Source of the DNA: Caulobacteraceae bacterium
GTDB taxonomy: Bacteria; Pseudomonadota; Alphaproteobacteria; Caulobacterales; Caulobacteraceae
DNA length: 64,000 bases
NCBI GenBank assembly: GCA_019247715.1
Contig: JAFBAO010000107.1
Span: 24,377-88,376 of the forward strand
Reading direction: 5' to 3'
The notes under the pieces were generated by a model. That model saw nothing but the letters and a program-made list of their open reading frames with translations, was not told where the DNA came from and ran no database searches. Positions 34,604 through 51,620 of this stretch are shown one piece after another; position 1 is the first letter of the stretch, and each line of letters starts with the position of its first letter. A program made the position numbers and the translations under genes.

Positions 34604-35599
34604 CTAAAGGGCGCGGGTGGCGCGCAAGGACTTGGGCCTGGGTCCCCCAAGAGGAGCCTCGTCAGCCCCTGCGTCCGCCGCCTGGCCGAGCCAAGCCCGA
34701 TAGACCGCCACCGCCGCCGGGCGCCACCGGCGGACCGGTCGGGACCCGTCCAGGATCTCCAGGAAGGCGGGCAGCAGCGCCGGGTCGGACCGCAGGCGCG
34801 CCTGGGCGGTCAGCCGCTCCAGAGCCTGCTCGCTCTCGGCGTCGAGATAGCCAGCCGGCATGGCCGGCAGCCGCCCGCCGTTTCGGAAGAACCGCCCGAG
34901 GTCGCGGCCGTATTCGCGCAGCAGGCTGTCGGCTTCGTATTCCGGATGCCCCTGAAAGTAGAGCGACGCGCTTTCGCTCGGGCCCAGGAAGGCGTCCACG
35001 CCGGCGGTCGGCGAACGGCTCAGGATCTCATAGCCGGCGCTGACGAGATCCGCCTCGGCCAGGTCGTTCCAGCGCGAATGAGGAACCCAGAAGGCGTGGC
35101 TCAGGCCCTCGGCGAGGGGATGATCGCTGGCCGGCGCGCATGGGAACACCCCGCTCAGCTTTTCCGCCAGAGGCCGGCGGCGCACGCCTGCCTGATGCAG
35201 GACCGCCGCGTGGGCCGCCAGGCACGACCATACGGTGGGGACCCGCGCCGCCTCGGTCCAGTCGACCACCCGGCGAAGGTCGTCCCAATAGGGCTCGTCC
35301 TCGAGCGAGGCGGTGCGCGGCTCGGCCCCCGTGACGATGAGCCCGTCGAGGCCGGCGCCCGCCAGCGACCCGGCGTCGGCGTAGCGTCCTCGCATCTGCT
35401 CCCGGGCCCGCTCGCCCCTTTCAATCGCCGGCAAGGCGAAGAGGCGCAACTCCACGGAGAACTCGGTTCCCGCCTCCGCGAGCAGCCCCTCGAACTGGGC
35501 CTCGGCGGTCGCCAGCGCGCTGTCTCCGAGATTGTTGAGAAGACCGATGCGCAGCCGGCGCCGGCCGCCTCTCCTGGGCTCCTTGACGAGCGGGCTCAT
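34604..35599 (-). CDS. metA: Homoserine O-acyltransferase, MetA (HTS) family
   Basis: IGLLNN, DGLIVTGAEP, YWDDL, WSCLAAHA (catalytic Cys), PHSRWN, FQGHPEY; overlaps the metY stop. Confidence 0.85.
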   Translation of the reverse strand: MSPLVKEPRRGGRRRLRIGLLNNLGDSALATAEAQFEGLLAEAGTEFSVELRLFALPAIERGERAREQMRGRYADAGSLAGAGLDGLIVTGAEPRTASLEDEPYWDDLRRVVDWTEAARVPTVWSCLAAHAAVLHQAGVRRRPLAEKLSGVFPCAPASDHPLAEGLSHAFWVPHSRWNDLAEADLVSAGYEILSRSPTAGVDAFLGPSESASLYFQGHPEYEADSLLREYGRDLGRFFRNGGRLPAMPAGYLDAESEQALERLTAQARLRSDPALLPAFLEILDGSRPVRRWRPAAVAVYRAWLGQAADAGADEAPLGGPRPKSLRATRAL

Positions 35600-36885
35600 G
35601 GCCGCTTGCCGGCCAGCGCACCCGCCAACGCTTGGTCGAGATCGCCGATGATGTCGTCCACGTGCTCGATGCCGACGCAGAGCCGGATCATCTCGGGCGT
35701 CACCCCCGCCTTGGCGCGCTCGTCGTTGGTCATCTGCCTGTGGGTGGTGGAGGCCGGGTGGCAAGCCAGCGACTTCACGTCGCCGATGTTCACCAGCCGC
35801 TTGATGAGGCCGAGGCGGTCGTAGAAGACCTTGGCCGTCTCGAACCCGCCCGCCACGCCGAAGGTCAGCAGCGAGGGCGGGGTTCCGCGGAGATACTTCT
35901 GGGCGAGCTCGAAGTAGGGGCTCTCGGCGAAGCCCGCATAGCTCACCCACTCGATGCGCGGATCGGCCTTCAGGAATTCGGCGACCCGGCGGGCGTTCTC
36001 CACGTGCCGCTCCACCCGCAGCGCCACCGTCTCGATCCCCTGCAGCAGCAGGAAGGCGTTGAGCGGCGCCAGCACCGCCCCGGTGGTGCGCTGATAGACG
36101 CTGCGGATGCGCGCGGCGTAGGCGGCGGGGCCGAAGCGTTCGGTGTAGACGAGACCGTGATACGAGGCGTCCGGCTCGCTGAACATCGGGAACCGCGCCC
36201 GCTGGGCCGCCCAGTCGAAACGGCCGCCATCGACAACGACGCCGCCCATGGTGGTTCCGTGTCCGCCCATGAACTTGGTCAACGAATGAACCACGATGTC
36301 GGCGCCATGCTCGAAGGGGCGAAGCAGGATCGGGGTCGCCACCGTGTTGTCGACGATGAGGGGAACGCCGTGCCGATGGGCGGCCTCGGCGATGCCCGCG
36401 ATGTCGCAGATGTTGCCGGCCGGATTGCCGACGCTTTCGCAGAACACCGCCCGCGTATTTTCGTCGATGAGCCGCTCGATCGCTTCGGGGCTGTCGCTCT
36501 CGGCGAACCGCCCCTCGATCCCCTGCCTTGGAAGGACGTGCGAGAGCAGGGTGTGGCTCGTCCCATAGAGCTGCGGGGTTGAGACGATGTTGCCGCCGCG
36601 GTCCGCCAGGTTCACCAGGGCGTAGTGCAGCGCCGCCTGGCCCGAGGCGACCGCCACCGAAGCTGCGCCGCCCTCGAGCTCGGTCACCCGGGTCTCCAGG
36701 ATCGTGGTGGTGGGATTGGCGATCCGGCTGTAGCGGTAGCCCTCGACCTCGAGGTTGAACAGGGCCGCGCCGTGGTCGGCGCTCTCGAAGGCGTAGGCGG
36801 CCGTCTGATAGATCGGGACCGCGACCGCCCGGGTGGCCGGGTCGCAGTCGAAGCCGCTGTGGACGGCGATGGTCTCCCGGCGCAT
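35596..36885 (-). CDS. metY: O-acylhomoserine aminocarboxypropyltransferase (sulfhydrylase)
   Basis: AVPIYQT, YSRIANPT, VDNT, HSLTKFMGGHG (PLP Lys), NIGDVKSL..HPASTTH. Confidence 0.9.
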   Translation of the reverse strand: MRRETIAVHSGFDCDPATRAVAVPIYQTAAYAFESADHGAALFNLEVEGYRYSRIANPTTTILETRVTELEGGAASVAVASGQAALHYALVNLADRGGNIVSTPQLYGTSHTLLSHVLPRQGIEGRFAESDSPEAIERLIDENTRAVFCESVGNPAGNICDIAGIAEAAHRHGVPLIVDNTVATPILLRPFEHGADIVVHSLTKFMGGHGTTMGGVVVDGGRFDWAAQRARFPMFSEPDASYHGLVYTERFGPAAYAARIRSVYQRTTGAVLAPLNAFLLLQGIETVALRVERHVENARRVAEFLKADPRIEWVSYAGFAESPYFELAQKYLRGTPPSLLTFGVAGGFETAKVFYDRLGLIKRLVNIGDVKSLACHPASTTHRQMTNDERAKAGVTPEMIRLCVGIEHVDDIIGDLDQALAGALAGKRP

Positions 36886-36951
36886 GAAGGCCTCCGATGC
36901 CGGCGCACTGATCTCGAATTGGACCGGCGCCAGCGTCCCGCGCAACAAAAC

Positions 36952-36967
36952 TGCAGGACGCATGCCG
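36952..36967 (-). promoter_or_regulatory. Putative sigma54 -24/-12 promoter for metY-metA
   Basis: Minus strand CGGCAT-GCGTC-CTGCA; invariant GG and GC correctly spaced. Confidence 0.5.
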
Positions 36968-36977
36968 GGCCGGCGGC

Positions 36978-36993
36978 TGGCGCGCGTCTTGCT
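36978..36993 (+). promoter_or_regulatory. Sigma54 -24/-12 promoter for the long-chain acyl-CoA synthetase
   Basis: TGGCGC-GCGTC-TTGCT, 44 nt before ATG 37038. Confidence 0.7.
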
Positions 36994-37037
36994 CCATTCG
37001 GTGTTAAGCCCCTCATTAGGCCCCGTCGACGCAAACC

Positions 37038-38819
37038 ATGCCCCCTGAGACCGAGGCGATTGCAAAGCCCGCGCTGCGCTCCGCGAACAAGGACTGGCTG
37101 CGCGCGCTGGAAATGACCGGCCGCCTGGAAGCGCGGCCGAACCGCATCCTGCCGAGCGTAATCGACGAGCAGGCAGAGCGGCTGGGCGAGGCGCCGGCCC
37201 TGCTTTCGGAAAGCGAGACCCTTTCGTTCCCGGCCCTGGCCGGGCGCGTCCGACGCTACGGGCGGTGGGCCCTGGAGAGCGGACTGGGCAAGGGCGACGT
37301 CGTCGCCCTGCTGATGCCGAACCGTCCCGAATACCTGGCCGCCTGGCTCGGGCTCACGCGGGTGGGCGTCGTGACGGGCTTGCTCAACCCTGAGCTCCGA
37401 GGCGCCTCTCTGGCGCACTGCGTGGGTGTCGCGCGCGCCAAGCGGATCATCGTGGACGCGCGGCTGGCGGGCGGCCTGCTGGAGGCCATCGGCGTCGAAG
37501 GGCCGCCGATCGTCGTTCACGGCGAAGGCTGGAGCGGCCTGCCGCGGATCGATCTGGAGCTCGCGACGCTTCCGGCCGAGGCGGCGGGGCCGGAGGTCAC
37601 CCTCGCCGACCCGGCCCTGCTCATCTACACCTCCGGCACCACCGGTTTGCCCAAGGCGGCGCGGGTCAGCCACCACCGGGTCATGAGCTGGAGCTACTGG
37701 TTCGCGGGCCTCGCCGACATCCGGCCCACCGACCGGCTCTACGACTGCCTGCCGCTCTGCCACAGCGCTGGCGGCGTGGCGGCGGTGGGCGCGGCGCTGG
37801 TCGGCGGCGCCTCGACCGTCATCGCCCCGAAATTCTCGGCCAGCCGCTTCTGGGACGAGGTGACGGACTGGGAGTGCACCCTCTTCCAGTACATCGGCGA
37901 GCTCTGCCGCTATCTCCTGGCCGCGCCGCCTCACCCGAGGGAACGGGCGCATCGCCTGAGGCTCTGCTGCGGCAACGGCCTGGCCGGCGACGTCTGGACC
38001 GCGTTCCAACAGCGCTTCGCCGTCCCCCAGATCCTGGAGTTCTACGCCGCCACCGAGGGCACGTTCTCGCTCTACAACGTGGAGGGAAAGCCCGGGGCGA
38101 TCGGGCGGGTGCCGCCGCTCCTGCGGCATCGGTTCCCGGCGGCGATCGTCAAGTACGACGCCGACGCCCGCGCGCCGGCCCGCAACCCCGAGGGCTTCTG
38201 CATCCCCTGCGCCAGCGGCGAGGCGGGAGAGGCCATCGGCCGGATCGCCTCCCAGGGAACCGGCCGGTTCGAGGGCTACACCGACATTGCCGAGAGCCAG
38301 AAGAAGCTGCTGCGCGACGTCTTCGCCCCCGGCGACGCCTGGTTCCGGACCGGCGACCTGATGCGCCAGGACGACCAGGCTTTCTGGTATTTCGTCGACC
38401 GGATCGGCGACACTTTCCGCTGGAAGGGAGAGAACGTCTCCGCCGCCGAGGTCGCCGAAGCTCTGCGCGCCTTCCCGGGGATCCGGGACGCCAGCGTCTA
38501 TGGCGTCGTCGTTCCCGGCGCCGGCGGGCGGGCCGGCATGGCCGCGGTGGTCGCCGGCCCCGATTTCGATCTCGCCGTCCTGCCGGCGCACCTGGCGGCG
38601 CGCCTCCCGGACTACGCGAGACCGGTCTTCCTGAGGCTCGTCCCGACGCTGGCGGTGACCGAGACCTTCAAGCCGAAGAAGGCGGCGCTGGCCGAGGAGG
38701 GCTATGATCCGGGCCGCTCGGACGATCCCCTCTACCTCTACGACCGCGAGCGGGGAGCCTATGTGGGTCTGGATGCGGACCTTCTCGCGCAGGTCCGAGA
38801 GGGGCGACTGCGCCTCTGA
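37038..38819 (+). CDS. Long-chain acyl-CoA synthetase (FATP/SLC27-like)
   Basis: IYTSGTTGLPKAA, FQYIGELCRYL, WFRTGDL, DRIGDTFRWKGENVS. Confidence 0.9.
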   Translation: MPPETEAIAKPALRSANKDWLRALEMTGRLEARPNRILPSVIDEQAERLGEAPALLSESETLSFPALAGRVRRYGRWALESGLGKGDVVALLMPNRPEYLAAWLGLTRVGVVTGLLNPELRGASLAHCVGVARAKRIIVDARLAGGLLEAIGVEGPPIVVHGEGWSGLPRIDLELATLPAEAAGPEVTLADPALLIYTSGTTGLPKAARVSHHRVMSWSYWFAGLADIRPTDRLYDCLPLCHSAGGVAAVGAALVGGASTVIAPKFSASRFWDEVTDWECTLFQYIGELCRYLLAAPPHPRERAHRLRLCCGNGLAGDVWTAFQQRFAVPQILEFYAATEGTFSLYNVEGKPGAIGRVPPLLRHRFPAAIVKYDADARAPARNPEGFCIPCASGEAGEAIGRIASQGTGRFEGYTDIAESQKKLLRDVFAPGDAWFRTGDLMRQDDQAFWYFVDRIGDTFRWKGENVSAAEVAEALRAFPGIRDASVYGVVVPGAGGRAGMAAVVAGPDFDLAVLPAHLAARLPDYARPVFLRLVPTLAVTETFKPKKAALAEEGYDPGRSDDPLYLYDRERGAYVGLDADLLAQVREGRLRL

Positions 38820-39758: not shown

Positions 39759-40025
39759 CTAGGCCGCCAGGCCGATGGCGTCCACCAGGCGGCAGATGGC
39801 GTCTATGCTGCGGAAGTTCGCCGGCGTCATCTGCTTCTGGGGAATCTCGATGCCGAAGGCGTCTTCCACCGCGAGCATCAGATTGACCATGTCCAGCGAG
39901 GTGAGGCCGAGCTCCGTCAGGTCGTGAGCCGGATCCAGCGGACCGGCGATCCCCCGCCGGGCCATGACCCCTTCCACGATGCCGGTGATCGTCGCCTGCG
40001 CCGACGCTGTAGACCCCTGCCCCAT
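39759..40025 (-). CDS. Carrier protein 1 (phosphopantetheine-binding; likely cognate of the aa:CP ligase)
   Basis: LGLTSLDMVNLMLAVEDAFGIEIPQKQMTPANF; Ppant Ser in GLTS. Confidence 0.88.
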   Translation of the reverse strand: MGQGSTASAQATITGIVEGVMARRGIAGPLDPAHDLTELGLTSLDMVNLMLAVEDAFGIEIPQKQMTPANFRSIDAICRLVDAIGLAA

Positions 40026-40112
40026 CTCAACACCCCAACGGCGCCGCGGCGCCACACTTTCGTCCCATTCCGGACCGGTTCCAACGACCGTCCTATTCGG
40101 GATTGCGCGGGT

Positions 40113-40281: not shown

Positions 40282-41496
40282 ATGGGCGTTCAAGACTTCC
40301 ACCGGGCCAGCGAGCCAAGCACGGTCGCGAAGGGTCCGATCGTCGCCGAGCCGCTGATGGCGCGCGCCGCGCGCGCCGCCGCCGTCGCGGCCGCACACGC
40401 CGAGGCGGTCGATCGCGACGCGCGCTTTCCTGCTGAAGCGATCGCCGCCGCCAAGGCCGAGGGACTGTTGGGGGTCATGGTCCCGGCTTCGCTGGGCGGC
40501 GAGGGGCTCGGCCTTCGCCAGGTGATGGAGGTCTGCTACACGCTCGGCCGAGCCTGCGCGTCGACGGCGATGATCTACGCCATGCACCAGGTGAAGGTGG
40601 CGTGCGTGGTCCGCCATGGCGTGGGCAGCGCCTGGCACGAGGACTTCCTGCGGCGCCTGGTGCGCGAGCAGCTCTTGCTCGCCTCCTCCACCACCGAGGG
40701 ACAGGGCGGCGGCAACGTCCGCTCCAGCGAAGCGCCGATCGAGCGGTCCGGCGACCGGATCTCGCTGGTCCGGGCGGCGAGCGTGATCTCCTACGGCGAA
40801 GCGGCCGATGCGGTGGTCACCACCGCCCGCCGGGCCCCCGATGCGTCGGCCTCCGACCAGGTGCTGACGGTGTTCCTGCGCGCCGATTACAGCCTGGAGC
40901 GCAATCTGGAGTGGGACACGCTCGGCATGCGCGGCACCTGCAGCGCCGGGTTCACCCTGCGGGCCGAGGGCGAGGCCGCGCAAATCCTGCCGGTCGCCTA
41001 CGAGACCATCCACGCCCACAGCATGGTTCCGGCCGCCCACATCCTCTGGTCCAGCACCTGGGCCGGCGTCGCCGCTTCCGCGGTGGAGCGGGCGCGGCGC
41101 TACCTGCGCAAGGCCGCCGCGGCCGGGGCCCTGCCGCCGAGCGCCCCCTATTTCACCCGCGCCAACGGCGAGCTGAGGGCGCTGCGGGCGCTGATCGCCG
41201 CCGCGGTCGATCGCTACGAGGCGGTCATGGACCAGCCTGACGCCCTTTCGGCGATGGATTTCCAATCGCAGATCAGCCTGCTGAAGGTGGACACCTCGGA
41301 ACTGGCGGTCTCGGCGGTGATGAGCGCCATGCGTTGCTGCGGGCTCTCCGGCTACCGCAACGACTCTGACGCCTCCATCGGACGGCGACTGCGCGACATC
41401 CTCTCGGCGCCGATCATGATCAACAACGACCGCATCCTGGCCAACGTCGGCGCTTCGGCGCTGCTGACCGAGGTGGCGGCCTCCATCAAGGACTGA
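40282..41496 (+). CDS. Acyl-CoA dehydrogenase-fold flavoprotein (atypical)
   Basis: AVDRDARFP, CASTAMIYAMH, SSTTEGQGGGN, WDTLGMRGTCS, RRLRDILSAPIMINND. Confidence 0.85.
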   Translation: MGVQDFHRASEPSTVAKGPIVAEPLMARAARAAAVAAAHAEAVDRDARFPAEAIAAAKAEGLLGVMVPASLGGEGLGLRQVMEVCYTLGRACASTAMIYAMHQVKVACVVRHGVGSAWHEDFLRRLVREQLLLASSTTEGQGGGNVRSSEAPIERSGDRISLVRAASVISYGEAADAVVTTARRAPDASASDQVLTVFLRADYSLERNLEWDTLGMRGTCSAGFTLRAEGEAAQILPVAYETIHAHSMVPAAHILWSSTWAGVAASAVERARRYLRKAAAAGALPPSAPYFTRANGELRALRALIAAAVDRYEAVMDQPDALSAMDFQSQISLLKVDTSELAVSAVMSAMRCCGLSGYRNDSDASIGRRLRDILSAPIMINNDRILANVGASALLTEVAASIKD

Positions 41497-41499
41497 ACC

Positions 41500-42411
41500 G
41501 TGAACGACATGCCCAGATTCCAAGGCAAGGCGGACACCCTGAAGGAGGGGCTTTTCCTGCCCAGCGGCGTGGACGGGATCTACGCCCGCACCGGCCTTTA
41601 CGAGGGGGTGGTGGAGTCGCTCGCCGCCCTGATCTCTTCGGAGCGTCCCGCCGGCGCCGAGGTGCTGCGGTTCCCGCCCGTGATGAGCCGCGCCCAGATC
41701 GAGCGGCACGGCTACCTGAAGAGCTTTCCGAACCTCCTGGGCTGCGTCAGCTGCCTGACCGGCGACGAGCGGCATATCCGCGGCGTCGTCCAGCGGTTCG
41801 AGGAGGGCGCCGATTGGACGAGCGAGCTCGGGGCGGCCGATCTGGTGCTGGCCCCGGCGGCCTGCTATCCGGTTTACCCTCTGGCCGCCGCCCGGGGAGC
41901 GGTCCCCGCCGAAGGCCTCACCTTCGACGTGGCCGCCGATTGCTTCCGGCGTGAGCCTTCCACCGACATCGACCGCTTCCAGTCCTTCCGGATGCGCGAA
42001 TATGTCCGCATCGGCTCGCCCGAGCAGATCCACGCGTTCCGCGAGGCGTGGATCGGGCGGGCCAAGAGCCTCGCCGACCGTCTCGGCCTCGGCTACCGCA
42101 TCGACCTCGCCAGCGACCCCTTCTTCGGACGCGGCGGGGCGATCGTGGCCGCCAGCCAGATCGAGCAGGCGCTCAAGTTCGAGTTGCTCATCCCGGTGCG
42201 CTCCGAGGCCGAGCCGACCGCCTGCATGAGCTTCAACTACCACCAGGACCACTTCGGGCTCACCTGGGACCTGCGAACCGGCGACGGCGGCCCCGCCCAC
42301 ACCGGCTGCGTGGCCTTCGGCATGGACCGGCTGGCCGTCGCCATGTTCGCCACCCACGGTCTCGATACGGACGCCTGGCCGGCGGGCGTGCGAAAGGCGT
42401 TGAAGCTCTGA
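41500..42411 (+). CDS. Amino acid:[carrier protein] ligase (truncated atypical SerRS homolog)
   Basis: GYLKSFP, PAACYPVYP (Zn Cys), motif 2 CFRREPS, FRMREYV (Zn Glu), SDPFFGR, SFNYHQDHFG, HTGCVAFGMDR (Zn Cys, motif 3); no tRNA-binding domain. Confidence 0.92.
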   Translation: MNDMPRFQGKADTLKEGLFLPSGVDGIYARTGLYEGVVESLAALISSERPAGAEVLRFPPVMSRAQIERHGYLKSFPNLLGCVSCLTGDERHIRGVVQRFEEGADWTSELGAADLVLAPAACYPVYPLAAARGAVPAEGLTFDVAADCFRREPSTDIDRFQSFRMREYVRIGSPEQIHAFREAWIGRAKSLADRLGLGYRIDLASDPFFGRGGAIVAASQIEQALKFELLIPVRSEAEPTACMSFNYHQDHFGLTWDLRTGDGGPAHTGCVAFGMDRLAVAMFATHGLDTDAWPAGVRKALKL

Positions 42412-42486: not shown

Positions 42487-43296
42487 ATGGGCTACGAGGC
42501 CGCCCTGGCGGGCTACGAGAAGTTCGACTTCCGCGACGGGCGCTGGACCAGACCCGTCTGGCGACGCGGATCGGGGCCGGCGGTGATCGTGATCCATGAG
42601 ATGCCGGGCCTGCATCCCGGCGTGATCGCCTTCGCGGACCGGGTGGCGGCGGCCGGCATGACCGTGTTCTGCCCTGTCCTCTTCGGGGTCGCCGGTCGAC
42701 CGATGACCCATCCTGGCGGGCTCCTCACCATGCTCGGGGGCCTTTGCATCCGGCGCGAGTTCGCCGTCTGGTCCGCGGGACGCTCGAGCCCGATCGTGGA
42801 TTGGCTGCGCGCCCTTTCGCGCCAGGCCCGCGCCGAGTGCGGCGGCAAAGGGGTGGGCGCGGTGGGCATGTGCTTCACCGGCGGCTTCGCCCTGGCGATG
42901 ATGACCGAGCCGGCCGTGACCGCCCCGGTGCTCTCGCAACCCTCTCTGCCGATGGCGCCCGGGAGCCGGCGCCGCGCGGCCGGCGTCGACGCCTCGGCCG
43001 CCGAGATCGCCTGCGCCCGACGGCGCTTCGCCGAGGAGGACCTCTCGATGATCGGGCTGCGCTTCCTGGGCGACCCCATGGTCCCGGACGCCCGGTTCGA
43101 CACCCTCAAGCGCGAGTTCGGCGACCGGTTCGAGGCCATCGAGATCGAGCCGCAGGACGCGGCCCCCGGGCCCCTCAAGAACCCCCATTCGGTGCTGACC
43201 GCCAACCTCGCCGAAACTGGCCCCACCAAGGCCGCCGAGACGCGGGTGATCGCCTTCTTCCGCGAGCGGACCGGCGCAGGGGCCGTGAACCCATAG
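42487..43296 (+). CDS. Dienelactone hydrolase family protein
   Basis: VIVIHEMPG, GAVGMCFTGG (Cys nucleophile), HSVL. Confidence 0.85.
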   Translation: MGYEAALAGYEKFDFRDGRWTRPVWRRGSGPAVIVIHEMPGLHPGVIAFADRVAAAGMTVFCPVLFGVAGRPMTHPGGLLTMLGGLCIRREFAVWSAGRSSPIVDWLRALSRQARAECGGKGVGAVGMCFTGGFALAMMTEPAVTAPVLSQPSLPMAPGSRRRAAGVDASAAEIACARRRFAEEDLSMIGLRFLGDPMVPDARFDTLKREFGDRFEAIEIEPQDAAPGPLKNPHSVLTANLAETGPTKAAETRVIAFFRERTGAGAVNP

Positions 43297-43298
43297 GC

Positions 43299-44030
43299 TC
43301 AGGCCGTGTTGCCGGCGTCGATGGTCAGCACGGTGCCGGTGATGTTGCGCCCGCCCTCGCCCATCAGGAACTCGACGGCGGCGGCGATGTCCTCCACCTC
43401 GGCGAGCCGGCGAAGGGCGCTGCGCCGGACGATCTTTTCGAGCCCGCCCTCGCCCATGCCCTCGGTCATGTCGGTCTCGATGAAGCCCGGAGCGACGGCG
43501 TTGACGGTGACGCCGAGACGGCCGACCTCCCTGGAGAGGGATTTGGTGAACCCGATCATCGCCGCCTTGGTCGCCCCATAGGCGGCCAGGGAGTTGTAGC
43601 CGTTCGAGCCGACGATCGAGGACATGTTGATGATCCGTCCGCCGTCGGCCTCGGTCATCATGGTGCGGATGACATACTTGGTCAGCAGGATGGGCGCGGT
43701 GACGTTGACCCGGATCAGCGTGTCGATCTGGGAGTTGTGCATGTTGGTAAGCAGCGCCCCGTCGCCGACGCCGGCGTTGTTGACGAGTCCGTAGATGCCG
43801 CCGAACTCGGCCTTCAGCTTGCGCACCAGCTCGGGAATGCCCTCGACATCGGAAAGGTCGTAGGGGACGAAGCGGATCGATCCCGGCGCCTCGGCGATGG
43901 CCGCGCTGAGCTCCGCGTTCGGATTGCGGGCGAGGGCGATCATGTAATAGCCGGCCCCGGCGAGCCTGCGCACGATCGCCAGGCCGATGCCCCGGCTTCC
44001 CCCGGTCACGAGCACATTACGCAACGCCAC
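43299..44030 (-). CDS. FabG-like SDR oxidoreductase
   Basis: TGGSRGIG, NNAG, YGATK, VNAVAPGFIETDM. Confidence 0.92.
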   Translation of the reverse strand: MALRNVLVTGGSRGIGLAIVRRLAGAGYYMIALARNPNAELSAAIAEAPGSIRFVPYDLSDVEGIPELVRKLKAEFGGIYGLVNNAGVGDGALLTNMHNSQIDTLIRVNVTAPILLTKYVIRTMMTEADGGRIINMSSIVGSNGYNSLAAYGATKAAMIGFTKSLSREVGRLGVTVNAVAPGFIETDMTEGMGEGGLEKIVRRSALRRLAEVEDIAAAVEFLMGEGGRNITGTVLTIDAGNTA

Positions 44031-45414
44031 GCTCCAGCTTGCCCCCGGCGGTCATCGCCAGCGTCGGCACGATACGCACAGACGCCGGCGTTTTGAAGGG
44101 CGGCAGGGCTTCGCGGCAAGCGCGAAGCACCTCTTCCTTCACCTTCGCCTCGTCGGTCCCCTGGCGCAACGCCTGCTCAGTGAGCACCAGCTCGGCGATC
44201 ACGATCGCCCCGGTGATCGGGTTGCGCCGTCCGCGCACCAGCGACATCCGCACCGCCGGATGGCGGTTGATCACCGCCTCTACCTCTTCGGGATGCACCT
44301 TGAGGCCCCCGACGTTGATGACCCCGTTGCGGCGGCCGACGAAGTGGTACCGCGCGCCCCTGAGCTCCACCATGTCGCCGCTGTCGACGAAGCCGTCCGG
44401 CTCGGCCAGCGGCGCAGCGCCCTCGCCAAGATAGCGGCTGGCGATGCGGGTCGACTTCAGTCTGAGCGAGCCGTCCTCGACCTTGAGGCGGACGGGGCCA
44501 TCGGCCTCCAGCAGGCTGGCCGGGAAGCCCTCGAGACCGTCGGTGACCTCGAACCCGACCCCGGCCTCCGTGGAGGCGTAGGCGTGGCCCATGGGAACGC
44601 CGGGAAAGAAGTCGCGCAGACTGTCCAGAATTGCCTGATCGGCGATCTCGCCCGACAGCCGCACGTACCGCGGATGGAGCGCCTTGGCGGCCGGATTCAT
44701 CAAGGCCCAGCGCCAGTGGGAAGGCGTGCCGGTGAGATGGGTGACCTGGTGGCGCGCCAGCCGGTCGAGGAAGCTCCCCATCGGCTCGTCCGGCCCGGTG
44801 AGCACCAGCGATCCCTCGGACAGCAGGGCGCGCAGCAGGATCTGCAGGCCGCCGTAGCGGCGGACATCGTAGAAGGTGCCCCAGGTCGGCGCCGGCGCGT
44901 CAGGGGCAGGCCGCTGGATGGCGCCGCTCAGCCCCGCGAGGGTGTGGACCACCATCTTCGGCCGGCCGGAGGTGCCAGAGGTGAACATCACCCACTCGGT
45001 CACCTGCTCTTCGTGCGTCTCGCCCGCCAGGGGGGTCTTCGGCCTGACGATCGGCGCGAAGGCCAGGCCCGAGAGCGCCGCCGGCGGGGCCTTTTCCGAC
45101 ACCACCGCATCCAGCGCCGCGACCTCGGCCACGTAGGGGAGATGCTCCTCCTCGAGATCGGGAGGGCAGATCACCAGGCGCGAGGCGACCCCATCCAGCT
45201 CCACCAGGGCGAGGGCCGCGAACAGCGGATCTTTCACCCGGACAAGCACCGAACGGCCCGCCAGGCCCGCGAGCGTCTGGCCGAGACCGGTGCCGTAGGC
45301 GACGTCGCCCAGCCGCACCCGGCGCCGTGCCCCCCAGAGCCAGCGGTCGCCCAGGCGTTGGGAGGTCGTCAGGGTTCGGCGGAGCGGCGCGGGATCAGGG
45401 CGTGGCGTTCTCAT
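44017..45414 (-). CDS. ANL-superfamily adenylate-forming ligase (acyl-AMP/acyl-carrier ligase)
   Basis: FTSGTSGRPK, YASTEAG, DSGD, GRRNGVINVGGLKVHPEEVE, C-terminal GGKL. Confidence 0.88.
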   Translation of the reverse strand: MRTPRPDPAPLRRTLTTSQRLGDRWLWGARRRVRLGDVAYGTGLGQTLAGLAGRSVLVRVKDPLFAALALVELDGVASRLVICPPDLEEEHLPYVAEVAALDAVVSEKAPPAALSGLAFAPIVRPKTPLAGETHEEQVTEWVMFTSGTSGRPKMVVHTLAGLSGAIQRPAPDAPAPTWGTFYDVRRYGGLQILLRALLSEGSLVLTGPDEPMGSFLDRLARHQVTHLTGTPSHWRWALMNPAAKALHPRYVRLSGEIADQAILDSLRDFFPGVPMGHAYASTEAGVGFEVTDGLEGFPASLLEADGPVRLKVEDGSLRLKSTRIASRYLGEGAAPLAEPDGFVDSGDMVELRGARYHFVGRRNGVINVGGLKVHPEEVEAVINRHPAVRMSLVRGRRNPITGAIVIAELVLTEQALRQGTDEAKVKEEVLRACREALPPFKTPASVRIVPTLAMTAGGKLERGVA

Positions 45415-45634
45415 AGAAGCGAATAAAGTCGCCCACGGTCACCGGGAAATAAACGTCTTCCGACAGGCTGAAGGGGTCAAACCCCAGTTCATCCTCTAGG
45501 ATCGCCACGATGATCGCGAAGCAAAGGGAATCCAGTCCCGACTCCAGCAGGGTGAGCCCGTCCGAAAGCGTCGCCAGGGTACGGTCCTGGGCCACGGCCA
45601 CCCGGCGGAACGCCGCCAGGATCGTCGCGCGCAC
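45395..45634 (-). CDS. Carrier protein 2 (acyl carrier protein)
   Basis: LLESGLDSLCFAIIVAILEDELGFDPF; GTG start at 45634 preferred, upstream ATG 45733 also possible. Confidence 0.82.
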   Translation of the reverse strand: MRATILAAFRRVAVAQDRTLATLSDGLTLLESGLDSLCFAIIVAILEDELGFDPFSLSEDVYFPVTVGDFIRFYENATP

Positions 45635-45745
45635 GGAGCCCGGCTCGCCCTCGAAAGGCGTTTCCGGAGCGCACGCTTCTTGCTCACCGGCGTCCAAGGC
45701 GCCTTGCCCGCGCTCCCTGGTCGCATCGTTCATGGTCCGCTCCTA

Positions 45746-46603
45746 ATGCCGCCGTCGCCGCAAGTCCGTTGCCGCCAGATCCGGGAAGCCGACCTGACGC
45801 AGGTCGCCGACCTCCTGACCCGAGGCTTTCCAAAGCGCGCTCGCAAATATTGGACCAGCGGTCTGGAGCGCCTCGCGGCCTGCCCGATCATCGAGGGTTG
45901 TCCGAGATTCGGCTATCTTCTGGAGGCCGACGGCGAGGTGGTCGGCGCCCTGCTGCTGATCTTCCACCAGACAGGCGCGGGAGCGGACGCCCGAATCCGC
46001 TGCAACGTGTCGAGCTGGTATGTGGAGCCGGCGTTCCGTAGCCATGCGCCGCTCCTCGTTTCCCTGGCCCTGAAGCTGAAGCACGTCACCTACGTGAACA
46101 TCTCGGCCGCCGTCCACACCCTCCCGATGCTGAAGGCGCAGGGGTACAGCCTTTACAGCCAGGGCCAGTTTGTCGCCATCCCCGCCCTGGCGGCCGCAGG
46201 TCGGGTGCGCGCCCGGTTCTTAGGCGCCGGCTCGGACCTCGTTCCGCCCGAGCGGGAGTTGATCGAAACGCATGTGGCCGCCGGCTGTGTGGCGGTGATT
46301 TGCGAGACCGACGGGGACGCGCTGCCCTTCCTCTTCGCCCGTCGCCGCATCGCCTACGCGCCCTTCGGGGTCCTCCAGCTCGTCTACTGCCGGGACACCG
46401 CCGATTTCTCGCGCTGCGCCGGCGCCATCGGTCGGCTCCTTTTGGCACGCGGGGTCCTGGCGGTGCTTTGCGACGCCGACGCCCCGCTCGCGGGCCTCCC
46501 CGGCTTCCTTTTCAGGAACAAGGGCGCGAGGCATTTCAAAGGTCCGGACCGGCCGCGCCTCAACGACCTTTCCTACACCGAGCTCGTCCTCTTCGGCGCC
46601 TGA
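45746..46603 (+). CDS. GNAT/Fem-like acyl- or aminoacyl-transferase
   Basis: IREADL..VADLL..GF, GYLLEADGEVVG, NVSSWYVEPAFR; length consistent with a tandem GNAT fold. Confidence 0.65.
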   Translation: MPPSPQVRCRQIREADLTQVADLLTRGFPKRARKYWTSGLERLAACPIIEGCPRFGYLLEADGEVVGALLLIFHQTGAGADARIRCNVSSWYVEPAFRSHAPLLVSLALKLKHVTYVNISAAVHTLPMLKAQGYSLYSQGQFVAIPALAAAGRVRARFLGAGSDLVPPERELIETHVAAGCVAVICETDGDALPFLFARRRIAYAPFGVLQLVYCRDTADFSRCAGAIGRLLLARGVLAVLCDADAPLAGLPGFLFRNKGARHFKGPDRPRLNDLSYTELVLFGA

Positions 46604-48619: not shown

Positions 48620-48786
48620 CTAGTGTCCCGATTCCGAAGTTCGCTAGCGTGAGCGGCGCTTCCGGTCGAACTTCGGAATCGATAGGGACACTAGCCAAGT
48701 ATATGTTTCTAGTGTGGTCTACGGATCAGAAGTTCGCCACAGCGCCCGCCGCGACAATGGGGCGAACTTCTGATCCACCACACTAG
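48620..48786. repeat. Composite CTAG-bounded double-hairpin element (MITE/REP-like)
   Basis: Unit 1 at 48620-48694 and unit 2 at 48709-48786. Each has CTAGTGT...ACACTAG ends, a GAAGTTCG/CGAACTTC core and a 4-nt RTAG bulge; the units are in opposite orientation. Confidence 0.8.
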
Positions 48787-49724
48787 AGCGTCTTCGGATC
48801 CCCGACGACCAGCGAGCCGCGCTCCAGCCAGGCGAGCAGGGTCGGATCGTACCGCGCCCGGGTCGTCTCCTCGTAGAACCTCAGCGACTCCTCGCTGAGC
48901 ACCCCCCGCCACTGGGCGTTCTCTCCCTTGTGGAAGAAGCCGCGGTTGTCGCGCCAGAGCTTGTGATGGGCGTCCGGCGCGGTGCGGTCGGCGTTGGACT
49001 TCATCGCCTCGAAGCTCGCCGCCTCCACCAGCGTGGCCCACTTCTCCGGCTCCACATCGACGCCGAGCAACCCCGCCAGCCGGCGCATCTGCCCGGCGAG
49101 GTCCGCCTTCAGGTCGGCGTAGTGGAGGAAGTGGATGTTGGGCAGGCGCCGATGCGCCCAGAAGCGCTCAGCGTGACGGAAGTGCGACCAGAAAGGGAGT
49201 CCGTCCGCCTCCCACTCGAAGCAGCCGGTGGTGAGCCAGACCTTGAACCGCTCGTTGATGTCGTCGGGCAGCGGCGGCGGTGGGACGAGCTCCACCCCCT
49301 GGGCCGCCAGAAGCCGCATCGCCTGCAGGATGTCGGCGTTGGCCAGGTGGGCTTGCAACGACATGAACACGTCGCGCGGATCGCGGCCGCAGACGACGTA
49401 TCTGACGTTCGGATAGTACGGCAGCCCGTCGAGCGCCGTGTGGCTCTTGACGATGCGGCGGAACCCCTGGGCGTCCAGATCCGCCACCACCGTTTCGATG
49501 GGCGACACCTGAAGGTCGAGCCATGGCGAGAGCTCGCCGAGGGGCGCCGGCAGGTCCGGGGTCTGGTGGATCAGGAGGGCGCAAAGCATCTGCGTCCAGG
49601 TGGTGCCGGCCTTGTAGGAGGTGCAGACGATCACGTCGCCGTCGCGGGGCCTGAAATGCGCCCAGCGGCTGCTGTCGAAGACCATGTTCCGGTAGCGGCG
49701 TTCTAACTTTGGCGTTGCGTTCAT
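48783..49724 (-). CDS. PAPS-dependent sulfotransferase (Sulfotransfer_1)
   Basis: TSYKAGTTW (5'-PSB), RDPRDVFMS (3'-PB), LHYADLKAD, FFHKG. Confidence 0.88.
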   Translation of the reverse strand: MNATPKLERRYRNMVFDSSRWAHFRPRDGDVIVCTSYKAGTTWTQMLCALLIHQTPDLPAPLGELSPWLDLQVSPIETVVADLDAQGFRRIVKSHTALDGLPYYPNVRYVVCGRDPRDVFMSLQAHLANADILQAMRLLAAQGVELVPPPPLPDDINERFKVWLTTGCFEWEADGLPFWSHFRHAERFWAHRRLPNIHFLHYADLKADLAGQMRRLAGLLGVDVEPEKWATLVEAASFEAMKSNADRTAPDAHHKLWRDNRGFFHKGENAQWRGVLSEESLRFYEETTRARYDPTLLAWLERGSLVVGDPKTL

Positions 49725-49743
49725 GGACCGTCGATGTCGCGGC

Positions 49744-49755
49744 CGAAATATTTCG
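49744..49755. promoter_or_regulatory. Perfect 12-bp palindrome, possible operator of the sulfotransferase gene
   Basis: CGAAATATTTCG, about 20 nt upstream of ATG 49724. Confidence 0.35.
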
Positions 49756-49815
49756 AGGGGCCGGACCATGGCGGTCAACGGCGCGCGGGTAAAGCGTCCC
49801 GTCGCCCGAAAAGGC

Positions 49816-50715
49816 TCAACCGGCCCGGGCCAGCACCGACGAGGCGTGTGCGAAGTCGCGGTAGAGGGCGCTCGCCTGGCGGAAGACCGGTCCGGGCTGC
49901 ATGGCGCGATCGTCGATGCGGGTGATGGCGGCGACCTTGGCGAAGTTGCCGGCCGAGAAGATCTCGTCCGCGTCGAGGAAGTCGGCGTAGGTCAGCGATG
50001 CCTCCACCACGGTCCGGCCGGCCTCGCGCAGCAGGCCGATCACCCGGCGTCGGGTGATGCCGTTGAGGAAAGTTCCGTTCGGGGCGGGGGTGAAGACGAT
50101 CCCGTCCTTGGCGAAGAAGATGTTCGAGTTGGCGAGCTCGGCAATGTTGCCCAGCATGTCGGGGAGCAGGCAGTTGTCGAAGCCGCGCGCGGCCGCCTCG
50201 AAGAGCGCCCGGGCGTTGTTGGGATAGAGGCAGCCCGCCTTGGCGTCCACCGGGGCCGTCTCCATGGTCGGCCGGCGGAAGGGCGACAGGGTGATGGCGA
50301 TCTCCCGCGCGCCGGGCATCGGGGACTCGTAGAGGCAGAGGCACCAGCGGGTGGACTCCGGATCGAATTTCACGCCGCCGCCCAGGCCCACGTCCGCCCA
50401 GTACATGGGCCGCACATAAAGCGGGGTGTCGGGAGCGAAGCGCCGCACGCCGTCGCGCACGAGGTCCATCCACGCCGCTTCCGAAACCACCGGCTTCAGC
50501 AGGAAGCGGCGGGCGGAATCGTTGACCCGCGCCAGATGCAGGTCGAGATCCGGCGACGTCCCCTCGTAGATGCGGCCGCCGTCGAACACGCTGGAGCAGA
50601 GCCAGGCGCCATGGGTCCTGGGGCCCATGATGGCGACATTGCCCTCATGCCACTCGCCCTCGAAGAAGGTCCAGGTGGCCGAGATGGGTTGGGCGGTGGA
50701 GACGACGGCGGACAT
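49816..50715 (-). CDS. Class IV PLP aminotransferase (branched-chain aminotransferase-like)
   Basis: SVFDGGR, LYVRPM, AKAGCLYPNN, ELANSNIF, FLNGITR. Confidence 0.88.
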   Translation of the reverse strand: MSAVVSTAQPISATWTFFEGEWHEGNVAIMGPRTHGAWLCSSVFDGGRIYEGTSPDLDLHLARVNDSARRFLLKPVVSEAAWMDLVRDGVRRFAPDTPLYVRPMYWADVGLGGGVKFDPESTRWCLCLYESPMPGAREIAITLSPFRRPTMETAPVDAKAGCLYPNNARALFEAAARGFDNCLLPDMLGNIAELANSNIFFAKDGIVFTPAPNGTFLNGITRRRVIGLLREAGRTVVEASLTYADFLDADEIFSAGNFAKVAAITRIDDRAMQPGPVFRQASALYRDFAHASSVLARAG

Positions 50716-50738
50716 GCGGCTCTTTCCGTGCGAGCGGC

Positions 50739-51620
50739 CTACTGGAACACCACGGTGCGGCTGCCGTTCGCCAGCACCCGCCGCTCGGCGTGCCACTTGA
50801 CCGCCCGGGCCAGGACCAGGGCTTCGACATCCCGGCCCACCGCCACATAGTCCTCCACCGTCAGGCTGTGGCCGACCCGCTCGACCGCCTGCTCGATGAT
50901 CGGCCCCTCGTCGAGATCCTCGGTCACATAGTGGGCCGTTGCGCCGATCAGCTTCACCCCGCGCTCGTGGGCGCGGTGGTAGGGCTTGGCCCCCTTGAAG
51001 CTGGGCAGGAATGAGTGGTGGATGTTGATGATCCTGCCGGGGTGGCGCGCGCAGAACTCGCCCGAGAGGATCTGCATGTAGCGGGCGAGCACGATCAGCT
51101 CGACGCCCGAGGTCTCGACGATCTCTCCGAGCGCCTGCTCCTGGGCCGGCTTGGTCTCGGGGGTCACCGGCAAGAGGTGAAAGGGCAGCCCGGACCCCAC
51201 CGTCAGCGCCTCGAAATCCGGGTGGTTGGAAACCACCGCCTTGATGTCGATGGGCAGGGCCCCGATCCGCCAGCGGAACAGGAGGTCGTTCAGGCAATGG
51301 CCGAGCTTGGAGACCATGATCAGGGCGGGGGTCTTGGCCGCCGCATCGAAGAGCCGCGCCTGCATGTCGTGCTTGGCCGCAACCGGGCCGATGGCGCGCT
51401 TCAGATCGTCGAGGCCCCGGCCGGCGGTGGATTCGAACACCGTCCGCATGAAGAAGCGCCCCGCGCCCCGTTCACCATGCTGGGCGCTCTCGACGATGTT
51501 GCAACCTTCCTCCACCAGCACCCGGGAGACGTCGGCGACGATTCCGATCCGGTCGGGGCAGGAAAGGGTGAGAATGAAGGTCGGCCAGGTCTTGCCGGCG
51601 GCTGTCTGCTTCAGGGCCAT
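50739..51620 (-). CDS. purU: Formyltetrahydrofolate deformylase
   Basis: ACT domain CPDRIGIVA, VSKLGHCL, LARYMQILS, NIHHSFLPSFKGAKPY, DEGPIIEQ. Confidence 0.96.
   Translation of the reverse strand: MALKQTAAGKTWPTFILTLSCPDRIGIVADVSRVLVEEGCNIVESAQHGERGAGRFFMRTVFESTAGRGLDDLKRAIGPVAAKHDMQARLFDAAAKTPALIMVSKLGHCLNDLLFRWRIGALPIDIKAVVSNHPDFEALTVGSGLPFHLLPVTPETKPAQEQALGEIVETSGVELIVLARYMQILSGEFCARHPGRIINIHHSFLPSFKGAKPYHRAHERGVKLIGATAHYVTEDLDEGPIIEQAVERVGHSLTVEDYVAVGRDVEALVLARAVKWHAERRVLANGSRTVVFQ

Follow-up and report, generated by a model that had tools for sequence, protein, structure and literature searches.

The window, a stretch of 64,000 nucleotides of a Caulobacteraceae contig, contains genes for an SDR, a short ANL ligase, a small acyl carrier protein (carrier 2) and a tandem-GNAT transferase which, as judged from their distribution among genomes, travel together and almost only with an amino acid:[carrier protein] ligase (aa:CP ligase), carrier 1 and an ACAD-fold flavoenzyme. 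We read this stretch as a dedicated thiotemplate module that would be accessory to the aa:CP ligase pathway and in which the tandem GNAT would join carrier-bound cargo, and we give this reading a probability of about 0.45, a little short of even. All four open reading frames were verified where the first-pass annotation had placed them, and its assignments (carrier 2, ANL ligase, SDR and GNAT transferase) are correct.

43299..44030, minus strand, SDR, FabG-like ketoreductase/dehydrogenase of 243 aa, last gene of the carrier 2-ANL-SDR operon
44017..45414, minus strand, short ANL adenylating ligase of 465 aa, predicted loader of carrier 2
45395..45733, minus strand, carrier 2, divergent acyl carrier protein, core at residues 34-112, Ppant Ser69
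45669..45684, plus strand, -24/-12-like element YGCAYG-N4-TTGCW, located antisense within the N-terminal extension of carrier 2
45746..46603, plus strand, tandem-GNAT transferase of 285 aa, family without a Pfam model, fold from AF2

Carrier 2, the ANL ligase and the SDR are encoded by overlapping genes on the minus strand, with the transferase facing the opposite way on the plus strand. The overlap between the carrier 2 and ANL genes is 20 nt long and real, as the ATG at 45414 is the sole start that preserves the conserved N-terminus of the ANL ligase. The second overlap noted earlier, between the ANL and SDR genes, holds at 14 nt for an SDR start at GTG 44030 and at 8 nt for TTG 44024, which has a GGAG 7 nt upstream, but a start at GTG 44015 would turn it into a gap of 1 nt. 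An AGGAG is located 6 nt before the carrier 2 ATG at 45733. The transferase begins at ATG 45746, which gives the 285 aa protein, while TTG 45680 is the start of the longest open reading frame.

The SDR matches adh_short in Pfam (3.1e-54) and is a classical SDR with a TGGSRGIG motif of the TGxxxGxG type, the Tyr/Lys pair in YGATK and a basic residue after beta2. In NCBIfam, its best match TIGR01830 (207.1 bits) stays below the FabG equivalog cut-off of 297.75, and NF009466 scores 206.3 against a cut-off of 222. An SDR orthologue adjoins the ANL gene in 65 of 80 related loci, and the ANL orthologue itself is present in 68. The ANL ligase matches AMP-binding (63.6 bits, cut-off 29.9) and AMP-binding_C in Pfam, and the core motifs A3, A5, A7, A8 and A10 are all intact (TSGTSGRPK, YASTEAG, DSGD, GRRNGVINVGGLKV and GGK). 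These motifs, with the A10 lysine, place it in the ANL adenylate-forming superfamily, and among solved structures it is closest to medium-chain acyl-CoA synthetases and MenE (E 1e-13 to 1e-15). From its sequence, the ANL ligase is predicted to be a competent adenylating enzyme.

Carrier 2 has no match in NCBIfam or in Pfam, and it does not reach the Pfam PP-binding threshold. A profile of 32 homologues searched against the PDB retrieved ACPs exclusively, the best being MacpD (6tg5, 5.7e-6). The AF2 model contains helices at residues 34-48, 69-83 and 100-110 and shows the ACP fold, with Ser69 of the GLDSL motif at the N-terminus of helix II. The first 33 residues are modelled as disordered (pLDDT <50 at residues 8-14 and 19-29) and may or may not be translated, with an alternative GTG present at about 45634. 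The unusual GLDSLCF motif (G66-L-D-S-L-C-F72) pointed out in the first-pass annotation, with a Cys two residues past the Ppant Ser, is invariant in all 32 family members. Sequence and model together identify carrier 2 as a divergent ACP with an invariant Cys.

The transferase has no sequence match in Pfam, NCBIfam or the PDB, and its Acetyltransf_1 score in Pfam (E 0.12, 13.1 bits) is below the gathering cut-off of 20.7. Sub-threshold matches to Acetyltransf_1 and Acetyltransf_9 are found in 16 and 7 of 57 family members, respectively, in a family of more than 1,200 representative clusters. The GNAT fold, on which the earlier proposal had been made to depend, is present in the AF2 model (pLDDT 95.6, pTM 0.91), which is a tandem GNAT by both Foldseek and VIA-align. 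Foldseek matches include Eis-like proteins, VipF, MAB_4324, the clavulanate tandem GNAT and GlcN N-acetyltransferases. In VIA-align, two-GNAT enzymes including N-myristoyltransferase superpose with Z of 12-14 across 246-259 residues, and single GNATs superpose on the N-terminal half (Z 12-14, rmsd 2-3.5 A). The earlier description as Fem-like applies only as far as the two-GNAT architecture is concerned; no FemAB match was obtained in Pfam or NCBIfam, and FemX-type chains are absent among the fold matches listed by Foldseek and VIA-align. The P-loop of CoA-dependent GNATs (Q/R-x-x-G-x-G/A at the beta4-alpha3 junction) is not found in either domain, and its glycines are missing family-wide. The family columns at this position read R98-x-[YHF]-[A40/G14]-x-[L/M] in the N-terminal domain and R216-D-x-x-x-F in the C-terminal domain. 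Substitution of the P-loop is characteristic of carrier-protein-dependent GNATs such as SbzI and FeeM (PMC11685415). Conserved residues of the C-terminal half include His176, Cys181 and Cys215.

The region between the divergent genes had been described as containing a weak sigma54-like site. The site is there, with two mismatches, and as a single match it would not stand out, such matches occurring 13 times in the window against 17.8 expected, that is, not above chance. However, it is more than a weak site, being conserved in 11 Caulobacterales relatives, though in a non-canonical form. The element sits about 65-80 nt ahead of the transferase start; across these loci and the window its distance from the transferase is given as 69-99 nt, and the loci carrying it include two (L003 and L008) where carrier 2 is non-adjacent. 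In comparison to the RpoN promoter (GG at -25/-24, GC at -13/-12), the GC, the spacing and the flanks match in all 12 loci, while every one has C or T in place of the first of the two canonical Gs. In minus-strand reading, the element imposes CAA, GAA and GAT, codons that are rare in the genes of the window (13-22% usage). A conserved -24/-12-like element of its own precedes the transferase gene.

The divergent arrangement of the transferase and the carrier 2-ANL-SDR operon is retained in 68 of the 80 loci. Unbiased clustering of the neighbouring genes across these loci was used to assess which further genes are conserved, and neighbouring genes of the window, conserved or not, are listed below.

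34604..37065, minus strand, MetA-like homoserine O-acyltransferase and MetY-like O-acylhomoserine PLP enzyme, NCBIfam matches
37038..38819, plus strand, long-chain acyl-CoA synthetase (ACS) of 593 aa, NF006134 PRK08279 at 725 bits, cut-off 625
39759-40028, minus strand, carrier 1, PP-binding, first carrier module
40282-41496, plus strand, ACAD-fold flavoenzyme, ACAD domains, first carrier module
41500-42411, plus strand, aa:CP ligase, NF005479 at 464.9 bits, cut-off 357, first carrier module
42487..43296, plus strand, DLH-like alpha/beta hydrolase, DLH 1.8e-8, convergent with the SDR gene across a gap of 2 nt
48783-49778, minus strand, sulfotransferase gene, class IV aminotransferase gene directly upstream
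49816..50724, minus strand, class IV (branched-chain type) aminotransferase, NF009896 PRK13356 at 447 bits, cut-off 262, start codon provisional

In about 30 of the 80 loci, carrier 1, the ACAD and the aa:CP ligase are found as a trio no more than 10 kb from the transferase. MetA-like and MetY-like homologues are found near it in 22 and 29 loci, respectively, and the class IV aminotransferase, which shares 65% identity with the Rhodopseudomonas cluster copy, in 29; a TPP enzyme is a further conserved neighbour. The DLH-like hydrolase, a possible release enzyme, has a homologue in only one locus and is therefore not conserved elsewhere. In 52 loci an ACS homologue is found at most 10 kb from the transferase, often directly downstream and convergent, a linkage nearly as tight as that of carrier 2. 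An acyl-CoA donor like that of N-myristoyltransferase is a possibility for the transferase. Among the conserved neighbours in the 80 loci there is no glycosyltransferase, flippase, export or nucleotide-sugar gene. A Polysacc_synt gene in 11 Rhodopseudomonas-type loci is an exception, and in the window a sulfotransferase, an epimerase and an ArnT-like glycosyltransferase lie a few kb off, none of them conserved with the module.

Co-occurrence was counted in 151 genomes of the Bradyrhizobium family, where the transferase and the aa:CP ligase occur together in 19, the transferase only in 2, the ligase only in 5 and neither in 125, counts whose independence is overstated because the genomes are related. 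The class-level background is 2 of 400 genomes for the transferase and 7 of 400 for the ligase. It had been considered fatal to the proposal if the module occurred mostly without the ligase; on the contrary, the ligase accompanies it in all 18 ANL-positive genomes, each of which also has the transferase, and in 19 of the 21 transferase-positive ones. In the opposite direction, the module is missing from 6 of 7 ligase-bearing genomes of the class sample and from 5 of 24 of the family sample. Of 29 genomes in which no ligase gene was found inside 10 kb of the transferase, 21 have an intact copy at another site. In two genomes (G465 and G518) the transferase is the last gene of an ACAD-aa:CP ligase-transferase operon, the ANL orthologue being located elsewhere, and in three others (G430, G492 and G578) it abuts the ligase gene. 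This shift of the transferase between both carrier operons fits its proposed role as the link between the two carriers. One complete genome (G227) has MetY-MetA-ACS-SDR-ANL-carrier 2 and the transferase with no aa:CP ligase at E 1e-60, and hence the module can work without carrier 1.

In the pathway that we propose, the ANL ligase would adenylate a carboxylic acid, probably one that the MetA/MetY-like, class IV aminotransferase and TPP enzymes conserved alongside provide, and would attach this acid to carrier 2 in thioester linkage. The SDR would reduce or oxidize a keto or hydroxy group on the carrier 2 cargo. The tandem GNAT would then use a carrier-bound thioester as donor and form an amide, most likely between the acyl group on carrier 2 and the free amine of an aminoacyl (glycyl) group on carrier 1, or alternatively in the reverse, Fem-like direction, and hydrolases would release the product. 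The product may be a small molecule or a lipid of the lipoamino-acid type rather than a polysaccharide decoration, since conserved glycosyltransferases are missing and the neighbours are instead ACS, MetA/MetY-like, aminotransferase and TPP enzymes. For the step at which the loaded carriers are used, the transferase is the strongest candidate, and probably it joins or offloads their cargo. That it is a free-standing condensation enzyme, forming an amide between the cargoes of a carrier loaded by an aaRS homologue and a carrier loaded by an ANL ligase, is a more tentative proposal, which we consider possible at well below even odds.

A doubtful alternative has the transferase pass the cargo of carrier 2, or a fatty acyl-CoA produced by ACS, to a free acceptor, either an amino acid or amine of the MetA/MetY/aminotransferase branch or a membrane lipid, with the aa:CP ligase branch as a parallel arm of the same pathway and not a direct partner. 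The genome that retains the module and the MetA/MetY/ACS genes without the ligase would fit such a scheme, the frequent ACS neighbour (PRK08279 above cut-off) could provide the acyl-CoA, the fold matches spanning two domains include N-myristoyltransferase and GlcN N-acetyltransferases, and the known carrier-dependent GNATs SbzI and FeeM acylate free acceptors. Against it stand the near-complete genome-level linkage to the aa:CP ligase and some genomes that place the transferase in the ligase operon, away from carrier 2 and ACS. It is improbable that the transferase is instead an acetyl-CoA N-acetyltransferase for self-protection or tailoring, Eis- or Pat/Bar-like, acting on a toxic product of the MetA/MetY branch with the carriers uninvolved. 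MetY-like gamma-replacement enzymes of rhizobitoxine-type pathways do make antimetabolite amino acids, and Eis-like and other acetyl-CoA-dependent tandem GNATs lead the Foldseek matches, but the family lacks the glycines that bind the CoA pyrophosphate, and the gene either has a divergent control region in common with carrier 2, as in 68 of 80 loci, or resides in the aa:CP ligase operon.

The first-pass annotation had compared the module with the Vibrio cholerae O1 wbe tetronate genes as a known way of building acyl decorations for surface polysaccharides. In such a reading the module would make an acyl group for a surface polysaccharide or LPS, and the GNAT would N-acylate an amino sugar. The surroundings of the module do not support this comparison, as glycan assembly and export genes are not conserved in the 80 loci apart from the Polysacc_synt gene, and the sugar-related genes of the window do not accompany it elsewhere. 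A few distant representatives of the transferase family are fused to GT4, WecG/TagA or GT2 domains, a possible sign that other branches of this family use sugars as acceptors, and the glucosamine N-acetyltransferases among the best two-domain fold matches point the same way; a search for longer homologues, however, gave a single fusion, to a TPP enzyme, and a metagenome scan for the WecG fusion gave no fused locus. Iyer and Aravind have predicted a cell-surface sugar as the target of aminoacylation by the aa:CP system (PMC2922099). Overall, a polysaccharide role seems unlikely for the module studied here.

If the condensation reading is true, the module would represent a tRNA-independent and NRPS-independent thiotemplate route and would provide the first biological role for the aa:CP ligases, unknown since 2010, and the transferase would join the very few carrier-donor GNATs as a two-domain, carrier-dependent representative. 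Biochemical and structural characterization of the aa:CP ligases dates from 2010-2013. The ANL ligase, second carrier, SDR and tandem GNAT form a compact protein set that lends itself to expression and testing, and a module almost confined to ligase genomes makes the role of the ligase a defined in vitro question.

The aa:CP ligase of the window (41500-42411), with a carrier and an ACAD alongside, belongs with the Bradyrhizobium Bll0957/Bsr0959 system (Mocibob 2010, cited in PMC9437257 and PMC2922099). The published system ends at aminoacylation of the carrier, the biological role of which is stated as unknown in a 2022 review (PMC9437257), and the ANL ligase, carrier 2, SDR and tandem GNAT are outside its description. 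FemX/FemABX enzymes also have two GNAT-like domains per chain but transfer an aminoacyl group from aminoacyl-tRNA to an amine, whereas here the donor would be a carrier protein, and the transferase has no FemAB match in Pfam or NCBIfam. N-acyl amino acid synthases of the FeeM type and LuxI-type synthases share the GNAT fold, an acyl-ACP donor and the N-acylation of an amine of the amino acid type; in contrast to the transferase they are single-domain and use the ACP of fatty acid synthesis with no dedicated loader or carrier, and the likeness would be one of mechanism only.

Among gene sets, Vibrio cholerae O1 VC0248-VC0252, proposed to make an N-acyl group (PMC3441752), similarly combines a carrier, an adenylating enzyme of about 470 aa (WbeL, 471 aa) and redox enzymes, but is part of an O-antigen locus that also contains genes for perosamine and export, unlike the module; WbeK-O were compared by description only. 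The Caulobacter bacterial ceramide module, consisting of Spt, ACP, ACP synthetase, the acyltransferase bCerS and the reductase CerR (PMC11087976), likewise has a dedicated ACP, an adenylating loader, a reductase and an N-acyltransferase. The partner genes of the present module are the aa:CP ligase, MetA/MetY and others, and serine palmitoyltransferase (alpha-oxoamine synthase), which would indicate a sphingolipid pathway, is absent from the cluster in the window and from its conserved neighbours. The altemicidin set lacks an SDR and a second carrier loaded by an aaRS-like enzyme, and SbzI is a single-domain GNAT of no detectable sequence similarity to the transferase, with an azaindane dinucleotide as acceptor. 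It nevertheless resembles the module in its stand-alone adenylating enzyme, small carrier and GNAT with a substituted P-loop, where SbzL loads an acid on SbzG and SbzI then passes this acid on from the Ppant arm, with an amine as recipient (PMC11685415).

The four ORFs named by the first-pass annotation could all be found in the window, which has a G+C content of 70% and whose closest relatives are Caulobacterales and Caulobacteraceae MAGs. The SDR, the ANL ligase and carrier 2 face the transferase from the opposite strand.

43299-44030, minus: SDR, a classical short-chain dehydrogenase (adh_short, 3.1e-54)
44017-45414, minus: ANL ligase, short (465 aa), with its Pfam match confined to the central and C-terminal parts
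45395-45733, minus: carrier 2, a divergent ACP
45746 (ATG)-46603, plus: transferase, a tandem GNAT of 285 aa

The SDR carries the TGGSRGIG motif, the Tyr/Lys pair of YGATK and an Arg after beta2, and is FabG-like, yet it falls under every FabG equivalog cut-off in NCBIfam. Core motifs of the ANL ligase are all intact, A10 lysine included, and among solved structures it comes closest to medium-chain acyl-CoA synthetases and MenE (E 1e-13 to 1e-15). The 20-nt overlap between carrier 2 and the ANL gene is real and is forced, since the conserved N-terminus is kept by the ATG at 45414 alone. The second overlap claimed, between the ANL and SDR genes, depends on the start codon: some starts give 14 or 8 nt while another leaves a 1-nt gap.

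The transferase sequence has no match in Pfam, NCBIfam or the PDB, and a profile of 57 family members searched against the PDB returned noise only, although the family is large (1,300 close homologs; 1,218 relatives among representatives clustered at 50% identity). AF2 modelling on an alignment of these 57 diverse members gave two GNAT-like halves with a pLDDT of 95.6 and a pTM of 0.91. Foldseek matched the model (E 1e-7 to 1e-9) to Eis-like proteins, VipF, MAB_4324, the clavulanate tandem GNAT, glucosamine N-acetyltransferases and N-myristoyltransferase, and VIA-align placed 246-259 of its residues on two-domain enzymes with Z of 12-14. The GNAT assignment made earlier from the sequence is thus borne out.

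Carrier 2 likewise has no match in Pfam or NCBIfam. It has more than 1,800 homologs, many of which carry the JGI label acyl carrier protein, and a profile of 32 of them matched only ACPs in the PDB. In the AF2 model the ACP helices are present, helix II beginning at Ser69, and the Cys-containing GLDSLCF motif pointed out in the first-pass annotation is invariant in 32/32 sequences. Both a long and a shorter start of carrier 2 are possible, because the first 33 residues are modelled as disordered, yet the long ORF retains a good AGGAG-N6-ATG. The ATGs of the long form (45733) and of the transferase (45746) lie 12 nt apart on opposite strands (45734-45748), and the transferase start codon overlaps the AGGAG ribosome-binding site of carrier 2. 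The transferase itself shows no recognisable Shine-Dalgarno sequence.

The sigma54-like site at 45669-45684, earlier called weak, indeed has two mismatches and taken alone is at chance level, but it is conserved upstream of the transferase. The window and 11 Caulobacterales loci share a block YGCAYG-N4-TTGCW that lies 69-99 nt upstream of this gene. Its opposite strand reads as an apparently conserved 'EQ[DE]SCA' in the N-terminal extension of carrier 2, and on that strand it uses CAA, GAA and GAT codons, which are rare in this genome. Two loci (L003 and L008) keep the block though carrier 2 is not adjacent. Because the block persists without carrier 2 beside it and is written in rare codons, 'EQ[DE]SCA' was rejected as a protein motif, and the constraint acts at the DNA level. 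In its -12 element and its spacing the block agrees with RpoN promoters and resembles canonical sites elsewhere in the cluster; as a putative RpoN promoter, however, it departs from the consensus at the first G of the GG, which is replaced by C or T in all copies. No -24/-12-like block is present between carrier 2 and the transferase in the Rhizobiales loci (L015-L076; Rhodopseudomonas/Bradyrhizobium), which share other AT-rich conserved blocks, such as CATGATAGAGCGAAAA and TTGGTAAAC right before the transferase start, and this suggests a different regulator there.

A synteny set of 80 related loci, drawn from 185,579 species genomes, was searched by tblastn with the window proteins. The ANL ligase and carrier 2 each adjoin the transferase in 68/80 and the SDR in 65/80, nearly always in the divergent arrangement of the window. 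[quoted passage not shown] At first glance this low count looks like the outcome named in the first-pass annotation as speaking against its reading, a module mostly occurring without the aa:CP ligase.

At the level of whole genomes the module does occur with the ligase. Among 29 genomes without a ligase near the transferase, an intact NF005479 ligase is encoded elsewhere in 21, and 2 more have broken copies. Of 151 evenly sampled genomes of the Bradyrhizobium family, 19 contain both transferase and ligase, 2 the transferase only (one of them just a 28%-identity paralog), 5 the ligase only and 125 neither; the class background, from 400 evenly sampled genomes, is 7/400 for the ligase and 2/400 for the transferase. 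The ANL ortholog is found in 18/151 genomes, all 18 of which also have transferase and ligase. Fisher's test gives p ~1e-17, a value that overstates independence because the sampled genomes are related. These counts make the second carrier module an add-on to the aa:CP ligase system rather than the other way round. When 11 ligase-positive, transferase-negative genomes were searched by profile for remote homologs of the transferase, none turned up; the transferase is therefore ruled out as the ligase's universal uncharacterised partner.

Further partners emerged when the ORFs of all 80 loci were clustered without bias and the conserved families annotated. In addition to the four listed here, which the window holds, a PRK08199 TPP enzyme, a Cupin_3 protein and DUF3095 belong to the conserved set.

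34604-35581: MetA-like homoserine O-acyltransferase
35596-37065: MetY-like O-acylhomoserine PLP enzyme
37038-38819: PRK08279 long-chain acyl-CoA synthetase
about 49816-50724, minus: PRK13356-type class IV aminotransferase, a conserved companion of the cluster in 29 related loci

The TPP enzyme follows the transferase at L002:10890-12572 and in 23 other loci and is absent from the window; in the database protein P0396 it is fused to the transferase. Immediately next to the aminotransferase, on its upstream side and in the same orientation, lies a PurU-like formyltetrahydrofolate deformylase (ACT + Formyl_trans_N; 50739-51620, minus), and a 493-aa ORF (49816-51297) overlapping it is an over-extended aminotransferase ORF. 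On the other side, a Sulfotransfer_1 gene (48783-49778, minus) has the aminotransferase directly upstream on its strand; it is not conserved with the cluster, and this lack of conservation hints at a lineage-specific sulfation step. A sphingolipid module was ruled out as no Spt is present in the window's cluster or among the conserved neighbours, and a literature search by locus tag returned only an incidental transcriptome table.

The module might instead serve sugar decoration, as the first-pass annotation proposed by analogy with Vibrio and as Iyer and Aravind (PMC2922099) predicted for the ligase system, which would aminoacylate a surface sugar via an uncharacterised neighbour. Rare members of the transferase family are fused to GT4, WecG and GT2 domains, which is compatible with that prediction in other branches of the family. 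A metagenome scan with the WecG-transferase fusion P0274 gave WecG homologs only and no fused locus, and we give these fusions little weight because a search for longer transferase homologs returned a single fusion, to a TPP enzyme, and recovered none to a glycosyltransferase. Unlike the Vibrio system (PMC3441752), which is proposed to acylate the O-antigen, the module has no glycosyltransferase or polysaccharide export family among its conserved neighbours in the 80 loci, and the sulfotransferase, epimerase and ArnT-like gene of the window are local and outside the conserved set. The Vibrio analogy is thus left unsupported, and the conserved partners argue for an amino-acid-derived small molecule or a lipoamino acid as the probable product rather than O-antigen acylation.

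With the parts list, fold, tight linkage and genome-level dependence on the aa:CP ligase established, the ANL enzyme would load an acid on carrier 2, the SDR would tailor this cargo, and the tandem GNAT would pass an acyl or aminoacyl group from its carrier to an amine, most likely coupling the cargo of carrier 2 with that of carrier 1. That the transferase handles both cargoes is suggested most strongly by its switching between the two carrier operons from genome to genome. It closes a carrier 1 <> ACAD - aa:CP ligase - transferase unit in G465 and G518, where the ANL ortholog lies elsewhere in the genome, and in three other genomes (G430, G492, G578) it adjoins the ligase, whereas in most Bradyrhizobium genomes it stays beside carrier 2 with the ligase up to 1 Mb away. 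One Bradyrhizobium genome holds two copies (L081, G017:C4:4200001-4220000, and L052): a complete one (Cupin_3, SDR, ANL, carrier 2, ACS, carrier 1 <> ACAD, aa:CP ligase, MetY, MetA, transferase, aminotransferase, TPP) and, about 1 Mb off, a partial one without the ligase. The complete genome G227 has the module and the MetA/MetY/ACS genes and no ligase, so dealing with both cargoes is not obligatory; a rival reading has the transferase act on a free amine or lipid, perhaps with acyl-CoA from the neighbouring ACS. It could also be an acetyl-CoA-dependent protective acetyltransferase. Column frequencies show that the CoA-binding P-loop glycines are absent across the whole family, a kind of substitution reported for the carrier-protein-dependent GNATs SbzI and FeeM (Zhu et al. 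2024, PMC11685415), which supports a carrier-bound donor, though weakly. Of the 57 members, 52-56 retain each of His176, Cys181 and Cys215, and a covalent thioester intermediate is possible. The 678-aa family member P0272 is fused to an NRPS-type PCP-thioesterase pair; its PCP, in which Pro stands where the Ppant serine is expected (GGDPK), resembles neither carrier, and it was discarded as a clue to carrier choice.

The module offers a concrete handle on the role of the aa:CP ligase family, a question that dates back to 2010. Its closest experimentally known analogue is SbzL/SbzG/SbzI, and it would represent a variant form of carrier-dependent GNAT chemistry.
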